Part shown: positions 15,574 to 20,142 of the stretch, piece after piece
How the letters are laid out: every line of letters begins with the position of its first letter
How positions within the stretch are numbered: the stretch's first letter is position 1
Assembly: GCA_963741205.1 (NCBI GenBank)
Contig: CAVUHW010000008.1
Location: 32,001 to 96,000 of the forward strand
Source of the DNA: Nitrospirota bacterium
GTDB lineage: Bacteria; Nitrospirota; UBA9217
DNA: 64,000 nt
Reading direction: 5' to 3'
Notes under the pieces: generated by a model
The model's database searches: none
Seen by the model: only the letters and a program-made list of their open reading frames with translations
What the model was told of the DNA's origin: nothing
Program-made: the position numbers and the translations under genes

Positions 15574-17233
15574 ATGTTTTCCTTGAACGCACACGATTAC
15601 GATCAGGCCCGAGCTCTCTTCAGGATCGAGGTGCCGGAGGAGTTCAACTTCGGGTTCGACGTGATCGACCGGCATGCCGCTGACCCGTCGAAACGGGCGC
15701 TGGTCTGGACCGACCCTGCGGGAAAGGAGGCCAGGGTATATACCTTCCGGGATATTTCCCGCCTCTCGAACCAGGCCGCGAACGCGCTCAAAGGCATCGG
15801 CGTCAAAAAGGGCGACCGCGTGTTCATCATGCTCGGCCGCGTCCCGGAATGGTACTTGCTGCTCGTGGCCTGCCATAAACTCGGTGCTGTCGTCGTGCCG
15901 GCGCCGGTCATCCTGCTTGCGTCCGACATCGAGTACCGGCTCATGAAAGGTAAAGCCAACATGTTGTCACGAACAGGGCGAACCATGCCAAGGTGGACGA
16001 GGCCGCGAGGAGCATCAGCGCTCCCTTTCTGCGAATAAGGCGCTGCTCGACGGAGATGCCGCGGGCTGGCACGACTTCGGAGCGAGCCATGGCCGCCGCG
16101 TCTCCCGCTCTGAGGGGCGACGTGGAGCCGAACCGGGCCTCTGATTCCTTCCTGATCTATTTCACCTCCGGAACCACCAGGTATCCCAAGATGGTCCATC
16201 ATCTCTGCTCCTATCCGCTGGGGCATCTCCGGACCGCCGGGTTGTGGCACGGGCTGACGGATAGAGACCTGATCTGGGTCGTGTCGGACACGGGCTGGGC
16301 CAAGTCGGCCTGGGGGCTCTATGGCCAATGGGCCATCGGCGCGGGATTCTTCGTTCATAATGCGGAAGGGCGGTTCAACGCCAAGCTGACCCTGGAACTG
16401 CTCACAACCAGGGGAGTGACCGCGTTCTGCGGACCGCCCACGGTCTACCGCATGCTGATCCTGGAAGATCTCGCAAAAGTACGATTACTCCGGGGTCAGG
16501 CATTTCACGTCCGCAGGCGAGCCGCTGAACCCCGAAGTGATCAGGGTCTGGCAGAAGGCAACGGGAAAGACGATCCACGAAGGCTACGGACAGACCGAAA
16601 GCTCGGTGCTGATCGCGAATTATCCCTTCATGAAGGTGAAGGCCGGGTCCATGGGCAAGCCCGTCCCGGACCTGACCATCGATATCCTGGACGAGAATTT
16701 CAAACCGGCATGCAGCCGGCGACGTCGGCTTCATCTGTGTCAAGGTGGACCCCGTGAAGCCCGTGGGCATCTTCGAAAGCTATCTTGAGGACCCTGACGA
16801 GAATGCGAAGGTCTTCCAGCAGGGCTGGTACAATACCGGCGACAAGGCAACGAAGGATGACGAAGGGTACTTCACCTTCGTGGGCCGGGGAGACGACATC
16901 ATCAAGGCCTCGGGCTACCGTATCGGGCCTTTCGAGGTCGAGAGCGTGATCCAGGAGCATCCGGCCGTGGCCGAGAATGCGGTGGTCGCCAGCCCCGATC
17001 CCGTCCGCGGCGAGATCATCAAGGCGTACATCGTGCTCGCGCCGGGCTTCAAGGCCTCAGACACCCTGGCGCACGAGATCCAGGAATTCGTAAAAGGCAG
17101 GACAGCGCCCTACAAGTATCCGCGGGAGATCGAGTTTATGACCGAACTGCCCAAGACCGTGAGCGGCAAGGTCAAACGCGCCGTGCTCCGGAGCCGCGAA
17201 GTGGAACGGAAGCTGGGGAAGCCAGGGTTGTAG
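15574..17233 (+). CDS. Short/medium-chain acyl-CoA synthetase (AMP-binding), several frameshifts
   Basis: YFTSGTT, EGYGQTE, TGD, GRGDDIIKASGYRIGPFEVE, LPKTVSGK. Confidence 0.88.
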
Positions 17234-17290: not shown

Positions 17291-17689
17291 ATGAATAGCG
17301 ACGAACAAGAGATCCGTCAGCTCGTTGCCACCTGGATGGCGGCGACAAGGGCGGGTGACATCGAAACGGTCTTAGGCTTGATGGCGGATGATGTTGTTTT
17401 TCTGATGCCGGGCCATCCGCCGATGATCGGAAAGTCGGGTTTCGCCGGAGCGGCGAATGCCCAGCGGGCCCAGGGAGCGCCCCGGTTCGACGGCACCAGC
17501 GAGATCCAGGAGATCCGGGTGCTCGGAGAGTGGGCGTTCATGTGGACAAAACTGACGGTCGTGGTTACCCCGCCGGGGGGCGTTCCGTCAATGACGCGTG
17601 CAGGGCATACCCTTTCCATTCTCAAGAAGCAAGGCGGCAAGTGGCTGCTTGCGCGCGATGCGAATATGCTGTCGCCAATATCAACGTGA
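17291..17689 (+). CDS. SnoaL/DUF4440 (SgcJ/EcaC-like) NTF2-fold protein
   Basis: WMAATRAGD..LMADDVVFL..GKWLLARDAN. Confidence 0.85.
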   Translation: MNSDEQEIRQLVATWMAATRAGDIETVLGLMADDVVFLMPGHPPMIGKSGFAGAANAQRAQGAPRFDGTSEIQEIRVLGEWAFMWTKLTVVVTPPGGVPSMTRAGHTLSILKKQGGKWLLARDANMLSPIST

Positions 17690-17696
17690 AGCGAAC

Positions 17697-19013
17697 ATGG
17701 ACAATCAATTCATCCAACTTACTTCCTGGCCGCGCGCCATCCTGCATCTGGACGCCGACGCGTTTTTTGCCTCCTGCGAGCAGGCGATCCATCCGGAGCT
17801 CCGGGGCAGGCCGGTGATCACGGGCAAGGAGCGCGGGATCGTGGCCGCGGCCTCCTACGAGGCCAAGGCGCGGGGCGTCTCGCGCGGGGTGCGGCTCTCG
17901 GAGGTGAAGAAGATCTGTCCCGACGCGGTCATCCTGCCGTCGGACTACGAGACCTACAGCCTGTTCTCGGTCAGGATGTTCGAGATCCTCAGGCGCTTCT
18001 CTCCTGACGTGGAGGAGTATTCCATCGACGAGGCCTTCGTTGATCTTACCGGCCTAAGGCGGAGCTTTCACGGCCCCTATGCATTGATCGCGCGAAAAAG
18101 ATGCAGGAGACCATCCAGAAGGAGCTGGGGCTCTCCGTGTCTGTGGGCGTCTCCCTCTCGAAGGTCCTGGCCAAGATCGGGTCGAAGCACAAGAAGCCGC
18201 ACGGGATCACCATGATCCCGGGCCGCGAGATCCATCTCTATCTTGAAAAACTTCCCGTGGAGAAGGTCTGGGGCATCGGACCGAACACCGCGGCGTATCT
18301 GAACAAGTGCGGCATTACCACAGCGCTCCAGTTCGCGCGGAAGGACGAGGAGTTTGTCAGGACGCATCTGTCAAAACCGTATCAGGAGATCTGGCACGAG
18401 CTGAACGGCAGGAGCGTGTACCCCGTCACGACGGAGACGAAGAGCAGCTACCAGTCCATCAGCAAGGCAAAGACCTTCACGCCCGCCTCGACTGACGAGA
18501 CCTTTGTGTTCGCCCAGCTCGCGAAGAACCTGGAGAACGCCTGCATCAAGGCCCGGCGCTACAAGCTCGCCGCCTCACGGGTGGTCATCTTTCTCCGGAA
18601 GCAGGACTTTACGGGCAGCGGCGTGGAGCTGAAGCTCAGCCGCCCTACCGCCTATCCCGTAGAGCTCTTCGAACTGTTACGGGAGGGCTTCCAGCATCTG
18701 TATCGAGCCCAAAGCCCTCTACCGCCAGACCGGGGCGGTGCTTGCCGGGCTGATCGAGGAAAAAAACGTGCAGTACTCACTTTTCGATGATACGACGAAG
18801 ATCGAGAAGATGGCGAGGATTTACGAGAGCATCGACCGCATATCCCAAAAGTTCGGCAAGCACACGATCCAGCACGCGGCGAGCCTGCCCACGAAGCTCC
18901 AGGCGCAGCACGAAGGGGAGCGGGGAGACGTGCCTGTGAGACGGGCGATCCTTTTCAAGGGAGAGAACAAGCGGCAAAGGCTGCGTCTGCCGATGCTGCA
19001 TGTTAAGGTGTAG
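17697..19013 (+). CDS. Y-family translesion DNA polymerase (DinB/UmuC-like), frameshifts near 18095 and 18720
   Basis: HLDADAFFASCE, AASYEAK, YSIDEAFVDL, VWGIG, QYSLF clamp-binding-like motif. Confidence 0.9.
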
Positions 19014-19058
19014 AGTTTGTTGCGGGGGCTGTTATGACGGCGAGGCAGAATGATAATA

Positions 19059-19371
19059 AAAAAGGCGTTTAGCTCGAACCCGTATCTTGGCTTTTCCGTT
19101 GAACCTCGGGAGAGATACAATAAAGATCAGTTTTACTTTTTCCCTCCGCTTTCGCAGACGTTAAAGTAATCCCTTCTCTTTTCCTGTATCTTCCTTCGGT
19201 CTTTAAGGCTTCAGCTTTCGAACTTCTACGATCCTGCGATCTGGGAGCAGCTGCGGATTTCTCCACTCTCTGCTTGCCGATCCGGATCATTTCCTTCCAA
19301 AGCTTACCGCCTTCAACGGAAATCAAAAATACTTGCGCGACTGCTGTTTCGGGTCCGCGCAACGCCTTTTT
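19059..19371 (-). ncRNA. Candidate structured ncRNA (~315 nt, unassigned family)
   Basis: Nested inverted repeats over the whole length, two GAAA-tetraloop arms, G-U pairs only on the minus strand, upstream promoter, 3' U-run. Confidence 0.7.
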
Positions 19372-19383
19372 AACTTCACAATT

Positions 19384-19412
19384 ATGATACCACTTCTTTT
19401 AAATTATGTCAT
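19384..19412 (-). promoter_or_regulatory. Sigma70-type promoter for the ncRNA candidate
   Basis: Minus strand aTGACA-17 bp-TATcAT with TG extended -10. Confidence 0.55.
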
Positions 19413-19581
19413 CAGTCAAGATGAATATTTTTTCTTTATCTGCTCTTCTTCCTAAGATACGAAAAAAGCCTTACCTCCGAAGGCGGCGCAAAGAATGGGG
19501 TACAATAATATAGTATTGAAAGGCCATTGGAGACATGTTCAGGGGGGACAAATAAAGGGCATCGGTTCACGGTTGAAAGAT

Positions 19582-20142
19582 ATGAATAAACAGCAGGCAT
19601 TACAAAAAATTGCTTCAGAAATCAGTGCATGCCGTCTCTGTAAAAAAGGAGGCACGGGAATGGCGGTTCCCGGGGAAGGCAATCCCGATGCAGAGGTGGT
19701 GTTCGTGGGCGAGGCGCCGGGGAAGGAAGAGGCAAAGAGCGGCAGGCCTTTTATCGGCAGGTCGGGCAGATTTCTGCGCCAGGAGATCCGAGAGCTCGGG
19801 CTCAACGAGGATGAAGTCTTCATCACCAGCCCCGGACACTATCTTCCGCTTCGCGGCACCCCTTCAAAAGAAACACTCATTCACGGCAGGGAGCATCTTT
19901 TCAAGCAGCTTTCAATCATCAAGCCCAGGATCATCGTGCTCCTTGGGAATTCGGCGTGCATTGCAATGCTTGACCGTAAGATGGAAATAACCAGGACGCA
20001 CGGAACGGTCATTGAAAAAGAGGGGAGGAAATATTTCATTACGTTTCATCCCGCTTATGCGATGCGGTTTCCGGAAGGGAAGAAACAGTTCATTCGGGAC
20101 TTCGCTCTCTTGAAAAAGATTATACAGGCCGGTCAAACATGA
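19582..20142 (+). CDS. Uracil-DNA glycosylase, family 4-like
   Basis: CRLC, VGEAPG..E..GRPFIGRSG, TFHPAY. Confidence 0.9.
   Translation: MNKQQALQKIASEISACRLCKKGGTGMAVPGEGNPDAEVVFVGEAPGKEEAKSGRPFIGRSGRFLRQEIRELGLNEDEVFITSPGHYLPLRGTPSKETLIHGREHLFKQLSIIKPRIIVLLGNSACIAMLDRKMEITRTHGTVIEKEGRKYFITFHPAYAMRFPEGKKQFIRDFALLKKIIQAGQT

Follow-up and report, generated by a model that had tools for sequence, protein, structure and literature searches.

A probable structured RNA gene of an undescribed family in an order of Nitrospirota, present in the window as a dispersed paralogue

Between two DNA-repair genes of a Nitrospirota bacterium (UBA9217) we found what is most probably an expressed gene for a structured RNA whose family has not been described. 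The stretch of 64,000 nucleotides (nt) that was analysed, hereafter the window, corresponds to positions 32,001-96,000 of contig CAVUHW010000008.1 in assembly GCA_963741205.1, and coordinates are those of the window unless another contig is named. Its own genome is called G000, and the order and family of the window were treated as one set of 64 genomes. The element lies on the minus strand, within about 19371-19059. We put at roughly 0.8 the probability that the gene is real, is expressed as a structured RNA and belongs, here as a paralogue, to a family not yet described. Its product is an independently transcribed, stable and highly structured non-coding RNA, made from an extended -10 promoter that serves it alone. 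The copy in the window, a dispersed paralogue, has no leader and sits on an inserted block of DNA, while a second form, the core form, occupies a fixed place throughout the order.

The stems that an earlier note on this DNA had proposed are all present in the minimum free energy (MFE) fold of 19375-19055 on the minus strand. This fold has a free energy of -127.6 kcal/mol versus -85.3 +/- 5.4 kcal/mol for shuffled sequences (z -7.88), and none of 100 dinucleotide shuffles was as stable. The plus strand folds more poorly (-100 kcal/mol, z -5.83). Both the MFE and the consensus folds have the overall shape of a rod with a three-way junction and two long arms with GNRA-type caps, and the MFE fold of the window copy is made up of the following parts:

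19359-19371, minus strand: 5' strand of the closing stem P1 (AAAAAGGCGUUGC), paired with 19073-19059.
19059-19073, minus strand: 3' strand of P1 (GC-UA-AACGCCUUUUU), forming a terminator-like closing stem.
19075-19357, minus strand: helix P1b, 19357-19351 with 19081-19075.
19082-19332, minus strand: rod of P1c (19332-19326 with 19088-19082) and P2 (19322-19314 with 19101-19093).
19205-19313, minus strand: arm 1, stacked helices with the cap GUGGA-GAAA-UCCGC, loop at 19261-19258.
19102-19201, minus strand: arm 2, stacked helices with the cap UCUGC-GAAA-GCGGA, loop at 19153-19150.

The P1 core GGCGUUGC is nearly invariant throughout the family and the CCGUUG/CAACGG core of the P1c/P2 rod is kept family-wide, while variation is greatest at the tip of arm 1. 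The terminal U-run named in the earlier note is present as six U at 19063-19058 on the minus strand, at the 3' end of P1, and in the window copy A/T runs flank P1 on both sides. Inspection of the RNA by eye yielded no convincing K-turn or 11-nt tetraloop receptor. In the window copy, UUGCGCG (19362-19356) could also pair with CGCGCAA (19339-19333), which would compete with P1 and P1b in the precursor and would be impossible after trimming of the 5' end near 19357.

Evidence that this fold is kept by selection comes from homologues. A DNA search of 61 related genomes gave one clear homologue, from the same genus, with 70% identity over positions 48-282; it likewise adjoins the glycosylase gene, and 7 of the 79 predicted pairs are doubly changed between the two copies, with gaps of 1 and 3 nt. 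A covariance model built on these two sequences (R1) found full-length matches in 26 of the 64 genomes, up to four per genome. Among them were weaker matches with a distinct arm-1 loop that adjoin the gene of anthranilate synthase component I (trpE), and these define the core form. When 32 mixed copies were aligned to R1, 89.3% of the cells at paired positions could pair versus 77.5% after shuffling, and 68 of 79 pairs were changed on both sides. The covariation score was 0.345 versus 0.176, a value reached by none of 500 shuffles, and controls in which the pairing partners were slid by 1-3 columns gave at most 0.075.

A second model (R2) was built from 15 core copies, leaving out the window copy and its close relatives, and it nevertheless scored the window copy at 72.3 bits over its full length (E 1.6e-21). 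In an alignment of 40 core copies the proportion of paired cells was 95.2% versus 88.8% shuffled, with 43 of 76 pairs doubly changed and a covariation score of 0.256 versus 0.141; again no shuffle out of 500 reached it, and the slid controls stayed at or below 0.076. The helix equivalent to P1b covaries in this set (AU 30, GC 9), and many unpaired nucleotides at junctions and internal loops are invariant within the otherwise covarying scaffold. The core alignment holds 214 G-U and U-G pairs versus 51 A-C and C-A, which fixes the strand as minus; the minus-strand assignment follows from these counts together with the tetraloops and the U-runs. A MAFFT alignment of both forms was misaligned, RNAalifold recovering only 27 pairs from it, and alignments that were model-based or restricted to a single form were used instead. 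A pseudoknot between the arm-1 loop of the core form and the 3' strand of P2, examined by eye, was rejected: one sequence has a matching double change and two others break the pairing. An all-against-all scan of columns for pseudoknot pairs was swamped by phylogenetic noise.

The closing stem behaves differently from the rest of the scaffold. In all 40 core copies the P1 segments GGCG/CGCC and UGC/GCA are identical and show no covariation. Variation in P1 (GGCGUUGCC with GGCAACGCC) is confined to wobble at three positions, and the P2 core likewise never covaries. To judge from the alignments, the invariance of P1 fits a sequence-specific signal rather than a mere clamp.

Public metatranscriptomes indicate that the RNA is made, and in quantity. 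In a run index, 13 RNA rows were found among 20 holders (11 studies), each with 14-25% of the words sampled from 18900-19500. Contigs of four RNA runs from four studies (labelled as soil, outdoor and rice paddy) were aligned to 18700-19700, and their cover is restricted to about 19072-19359, with zero depth over 18938-19039 and 19380-19549; these empty stretches are a weak hint at the limits of the transcript. In three studies entire contigs of 280, 287 and 277 nt correspond to 19078-19357, 19072-19357 and 19075-19351. In the fourth (X2), most of the RNA is covered to a depth of about 200-1600, with 22-69 toward its 5' end, versus 4 on the glycosylase gene. Illumina adapter letters in X2 abut the matches directly at 19079 and 19356, while at 19078 and 19087 the adapter comes after 12 and 19 more letters of a variant copy. 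In all four studies the contigs end within P1, at 19072-19078 and 19351-19359, ends which do not prove those of the molecule.

The upstream promoter that the earlier note had placed there was found as a TG-extended -10 site, whose -10 ends about 13 nt ahead of P1. The transcription features are as follows:

19384-19412, minus strand: promoter-like site (ATGACA, 17 nt, TATCAT, TG-extended -10), one of 2 such sites in 18500-20000 versus 0.9 expected.
19055-19377, minus strand: predicted primary transcript, from a start about 7 nt past the -10 to the end of the U-run, as judged from promoter, fold and U-run.
19072-19359, minus strand: extent of the metatranscriptome contig cover, probably equal to the mature RNA (about 280-288 nt).

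Because the contigs of four studies cover 19072-19359 only, the RNA appears to be abundant and probably loses its closing stem. Indeed, it is abundant in soil and paddy metatranscriptomes, contig depths not being equal to expression levels, and the mature form is probably without the 5' strand of P1 and most of the 3' strand. P1b would then be its terminal helix. The earlier expectation of a minus-strand transcript was borne out in part: the contigs cover just the RNA, and they do not show its strand.

As far as Rfam 15 and literature searches tell, the family is undescribed. At gathering scores the entire 64-kb window gave no Rfam 15 match; at E<=10 the region 18700-19800 gave only four unrelated matches of 12-20 bits, and at E<=0.1 the 18 related loci gave only one unrelated match. 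No Rfam match to large-subunit (LSU), small-subunit (SSU) or 5S ribosomal RNA (rRNA) was found in the window region or the 18 related loci. The earlier proposal that the element is none of RNase P RNA, transfer-messenger RNA (tmRNA), signal recognition particle (SRP) RNA and 6S RNA holds, as canonical copies of all four lie elsewhere in the same genome: RNase P RNA (RF00010, 274.7 bits), SRP RNA (RF00169, 74.7 bits), tmRNA (RF00023, 194.2 bits) and a separate 6S RNA (RF00013) at 226924-227105 of contig C26 (105.6 bits). G000 also holds a second RNase P RNA match of 232.5 bits, above the Rfam cut-off, the two loci being C10:64992-65363 and C15:24401-24835; it represents a second gene or else contamination, G000 being rated 4.94% contaminated. 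Our literature search found no description of the present RNA, although the motif lists that supplement PMC8632094, PMC11109978, PMC6429828 and PMC2864571 might hold it. The absence of an Rfam 15 match, the covarying homologues and the RNA-library contigs of four studies agree with the earlier suggestion of a possible new class of non-coding RNA.

The core form is single-copy and order-wide. R2 matched 62 of the 64 genomes of the order, including 32 of 32 of high quality; in 59 the match had E<=8e-44 and in three it was weaker only, while completeness is 71% and 68% in the two unmatched genomes. The core copy of G000 lies at C13:71109-71435 (255 bits). In a sample of the phylum, all 27 further members of the family (f1) matched, and 123 genomes of 21 other families gave a single match of 67 nt and 20 bits. 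Of 45 stretches selected from public metagenome contigs with a strict pattern, 44 are model matches; a looser scan of genome contigs returned 120, mostly from GC-rich genomes, with a single model match in the 80 that were listed.

Beside 37 of 38 core loci trpE is divergent, head-to-head with the RNA gene. We found no features of the RNA that point to tryptophan, and the very tight tie to trpE may simply reflect a bidirectional promoter region that has been retained. On the trpE side, core loci (e.g. L175, 1380-1480) conserve a promoter-like element, TTGACC, 17 nt, TAGAAT, and only about 17 nt separate its -10 from the start codon. An imperfect palindrome of the type AATTGT, 4 nt, ACAATT is present twice on this side, and by its sequence it looks like an operator for a DNA-binding trpE repressor. 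A search for targets of the arm-1 loop found its 9-nt complement 12 times in the genome, never in the rRNA operon.

What distinguishes the core gene is the region ahead of P1. The motif TGnTATAnT stands 45-72 nt ahead of P1 in 39 of 40 core loci, and in 36 of 40 a box G-N-TCTTT, followed mostly by GAA, stands 14-28 nt (median 17) ahead of it. The box occurs 15 times in G000 versus about 4.5 expected, once 123 nt upstream of the 16S gene. This 16S-type leader box occurs in the core form only, being present in none of 23 dispersed copies, the window copy included. It resembles the gamma-proteobacterial boxA consensus GYTCTTTAANA given in the excerpted part of PMC5725501, a consensus on which Supplementary Table 2 of that paper might improve. 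In the part of PMC4807359 that we draw on, boxA-bound NusB/NusE are tethered to the polymerase, so that the strands of the 16S leader and trailer meet before they are cut by RNase III; an extract of PMC10250234 bears on the same comparison. The core gene thus runs from the promoter through a leader of about 50 nt with the box, the upstream strand of P1, about 300 nt of RNA and the downstream strand to a U-run, which core copies have on the RNA strand only.

By analogy, the core gene would be laid out like a small rRNA gene, with Nus binding and cutting by RNase III as presumed steps. As in rRNA genes, a 16S-type box lies 14-28 nt ahead of a long-range closing helix, and the RNA is abundant with contigs that lack the helix strands; unlike rRNA, it has no LSU, SSU or 5S match and lies outside the rRNA operon, and the window copy has no leader box. 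Several core leaders (e.g. L174, L178, L192) carry, as read by eye, a short hairpin directly ahead of the box, in a boxB-like placement.

These features suggest how the gene might work. P1 would close the nascent RNA and, together with the U-run, end transcription of the window copy. It would then be removed, like the rRNA leader-trailer helices cut by RNase III, and we consider such a removal of P1 in processing somewhat better than an even chance. What is left, a Y-shaped molecule of about 285 nt, would build up to high levels, with the invariant junctions and loops as contact sites for protein or RNA. The paralogues, whose differences lie mostly at the tip of arm 1, would represent variant or competing versions. 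The RNA occurs throughout the order, is abundant, would be produced in the manner of rRNA and has many invariant unpaired nucleotides in junctions and loops. On these grounds we make the tentative guess, for which the odds are about one in three, that it acts in trans as the RNA component of a ribonucleoprotein of housekeeping type that is specific to the lineage. Slightly more tentative still is the idea that an extra stable RNA made in the manner of rRNA (boxA-type leader, cut stalk, very high abundance) is a subunit of a housekeeping particle, perhaps one with a link to the ribosome or to RNA processing, and that mobile paralogue cassettes, the one in the window among them, give rise to variant particles.

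A polymerase-binding regulator and a ribozyme are alternatives of equal rank, both unlikely. The first would be a global regulator that sequesters RNA polymerase in slow growth, as 6S RNA does or as Ms1 does, a mycobacterial RNA of about 300 nt of the polymerase-binding kind. Like 6S RNA (RF00013), the present RNA is an abundant stand-alone molecule with paired 5' and 3' ends; it is transcribed from a promoter of its own, it is plentiful in metatranscriptomes of soil and paddy, and its core form is single-copy across the order. However, 60 of 64 genomes, G000 included, already have a canonical 6S RNA. The fold is a branched Y and not a rod with a central bubble, the RNA is about 100 nt longer than 6S RNA, and the element gives no Rfam 6S match even at E<=10.

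A large catalytic RNA, whose active site the invariant junction and loop nucleotides would form, seems no more probable. Many invariant unpaired nucleotides in a covarying scaffold are what such a molecule would have, GNRA-type loops are typical of tertiary docking, and size and complexity are comparable with those of orphan large RNAs as portrayed in the portions of the literature cited below. Yet we can propose no substrate, cleavage site or chemistry, protein nucleases explain the discrete ends equally well, and the paralogues vary at arm 1, the very site of the most conserved loop of the core form.

The history of the window copy bears on a further alternative, and it is best told with the features that surround the gene:

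17598-19013, plus strand: left neighbour, a Y-family DNA polymerase (dinB-like, IMS domains), from Pfam/domain matches and congener alignment.
19014-19581, no strand: spacer of 568 nt that separates dinB from the glycosylase gene and contains the RNA gene, from congener comparison.
19468-19484, minus strand: terminator-like hairpin and U-run upstream of the RNA promoter, inside the inserted block and absent from four congeners.
19582-20142, plus strand: right neighbour, a UDG-superfamily glycosylase directed away from the RNA gene, from a domain match and congener alignment.

The two DNA-repair genes between which the earlier note had placed the element are thus a Y-family polymerase and a UDG-superfamily glycosylase, both on the plus strand. 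The glycosylase start at 19582 was set by congener alignment, the open frame starting at 19495. In the window the polymerase gene is split over three overlapping open reading frames (17598-18215, 18101-18790 and 18738-19013) and is unbroken in congeners. Further upstream, the gene of an AMP-binding enzyme (15993-17233, plus strand) is also split in two (15993-16757 and 16745-17233). The splits are either assembly frameshift errors or true pseudogenes.

The polymerase and glycosylase genes are adjacent in five congeners, and in four of them the spacer is about 70 nt long versus 568 nt in the window, from which it follows that about 500 nt with the upstream hairpin, the promoter and the RNA gene are an insertion. 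The fifth congener (G006, locus L228) has a different, unrelated insert of about 200 nt in the same spacer, where insertions seem to land repeatedly. In the window the inserted DNA extends from about 19014 to about 19560, so that its boundaries fall 45 nt and about 190 nt beyond P1, and P1 is therefore not where it ends. The flanks align poorly where a target-site duplication would be sought. Upstream of the window copy, at 19484-19455, a hairpin, a T-run and CGTATC are akin to the flanks of other dispersed copies.

Most of the 23 dispersed copies, read by eye, have TGnTATAnT 6-12 nt ahead of P1. The main dispersed group (loci L011-L023) shares about 85 nt upstream and about 90 nt downstream across genera. 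The flanks hold a separate terminator hairpin after P1 and a motif of about 13 nt (CGTT-CCCT-CATC type) on both sides, a pattern that could come from tandem duplication or a recombination site. Dispersed copies of different genera are 72-86% identical versus 65-78% for the core copies of the same genomes, and their likeness is independent of genus, a pattern that suggests transfer or recombination as the means of spread. Identity is 67.8% between the window copy and its same-genus partner but 81.2% between their core copies; the window subtype evolves faster while keeping its helices. BLAST found one match in G000 and the models two (window and core), with 1-5 matches per genome in the order. 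One contig (G015:C90:11680-12896; L034, L193) carries three tandem same-strand copies by trpE, one of the dispersed and two of the core type, with a fourth 7 kb off, and in G009:C145, G026:C3, G019:C12 and G016:C67 pairs of family members lie 1-8 kb apart.

Much of this would also be expected of a selfish non-coding mobile cassette, either recombination-borne or resembling a miniature inverted-repeat transposable element (MITE), in which the closing inverted repeat is a terminal repeat and the fold is incidental. The window copy came with an insertion of about 500 nt that four congeners lack, dispersed copies stand in varied, unrelated contexts (three beside IS110, IS605 OrfB HTH or HicB-like genes), and their flanks, each with a direct-repeat-like motif, are common to different genera. 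As in a MITE, inverted repeats bound the unit, here of about 320 nt; the 9 bp at the ends of P1 do not vary, and the likeness between dispersed copies, closer than that between core copies, does not track genus. What speaks for selection on the RNA instead is that helices are kept by compensatory changes with a strong excess of G-U pairs on one strand. The copy number is low, with at most four dispersed copies per genome (five family matches in all) and one in G000, and the boundaries of the insertion lie beyond P1; the earlier note had named a MITE as what would overturn its proposal. Further, the core copy is fixed by trpE at 37 of 38 loci and the RNA is abundant, high expression being another difference from MITEs. 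Plasmid and phage records gave no blastn match, and none of the 80 stretches listed, out of 112 from a viral pattern scan, was a model match. We consider the cassette improbable, a little more so than the regulator or the ribozyme, and a plain MITE as good as rejected.

Far less probable is a cis-acting leader on the plus strand (riboswitch, T-box or attenuator) for the glycosylase gene here and for trpE at core copies. A gene on the opposite strand always begins shortly after the element, and P1 of the window copy has A/T runs on either side. Against this, G-U and U-G pairs outnumber A-C and C-A pairs by 214 to 51 on the assigned strand, the plus-strand fold is weaker, and the GNRA loops and U-runs suit the minus strand only. 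In addition, trpE is preceded by a promoter-like site of its own, as read by eye, whose -10 lies about 17 nt ahead of the start codon, the RNA contigs end before the glycosylase gene, and no riboswitch or T-box family matched.

The protein-sponge role that the earlier note had raised, taken here to mean that GGA motifs titrate a protein of the CsrA/RsmA type, found no support for CsrA and is nearly refuted. Several GGA triplets are present, some in conserved single-stranded stretches, but the CsrA family (PF02599) was detected in a single one of the order's 64 genomes and in none of the 32 of high quality, controls from E. coli, B. subtilis and T. maritima having responded, and the covarying branched fold is not a string of short GGA hairpins. 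Just as improbable is a small protein from the 97-codon frame at 19362-19069 (minus strand), which does span the element but has no Pfam match, meets gaps of 1 and 3 nt in the same-genus homologue and pairwise compensatory substitutions, and corresponds to longest stop-free stretches that vary from 40 to 108 codons among 40 core copies.

Several points weigh against a structured RNA gene of the kind we propose. P1 and P2 never covary, so that their pairing is deduced from complementarity alone, and their invariance could equally act at the DNA level or reflect protein binding. The covariation counts are inflated by alignments that are fitted to the models and made of kindred sequences, a qualification that applies to both alignments in which the scores exceed those of 500 shuffles; the gap between these scores and the slid controls is large even though the figures are generous. 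The metatranscriptome contigs reveal neither strand nor true ends, and as RNA runs alone were compared, carry-over of DNA is conceivable; the sharp limits at the body of the RNA and a depth of 200-1600 versus 4 on the neighbouring gene in X2 speak against it. The lack of a boxA-like leader at the window copy means that the rRNA-like layout holds for the core gene and not for this copy. No conserved neighbour was found in the family other than trpE, which adjoins the core copies, and the changing contexts of dispersed copies on a conserved block of about 500 nt leave room for a selfish or mobile component.

Among known systems, the relatives in kind of the RNA gene we propose include OLE, the raiA motif, ROOL and GOLLD. 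Like these, as they are presented in the excerpts of PMC10861870, PMC10898510 and PMC12286853, it is large, ornate and strongly covarying with many invariant unpaired nucleotides, and it shares with them a distribution that is lineage-restricted yet consistent, and independent transcription. Unlike them, the present RNA is smaller (about 285-320 nt) and has no Rfam 15 match at E<=10. Its family is confined to one order of Nitrospirota, the core form has an rRNA-style leader box and a closing stalk, and there are dispersed paralogues.

The solved cases, 6S RNA, tmRNA, OLE and others, each opened new cell biology. To our knowledge, very few RNA classes are universal in an order, abundant and without known function. 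The present family is well suited to study: a length of about 285-320 nt fits probing and cryo-electron microscopy, more than 120 natural variants offer rich covariation, expression is high enough for assembly of the RNA from soil and paddy metatranscriptomes, and a core gene at a fixed locus can be compared with paralogues that are natural variants. Used for annotation, R1 and R2 would put a name to a gene that at present goes unmarked in all genomes of the order. If the rRNA-style leader on a non-ribosomal RNA is what it appears to be, it would extend Nus-factor-assisted folding to a new kind of gene.

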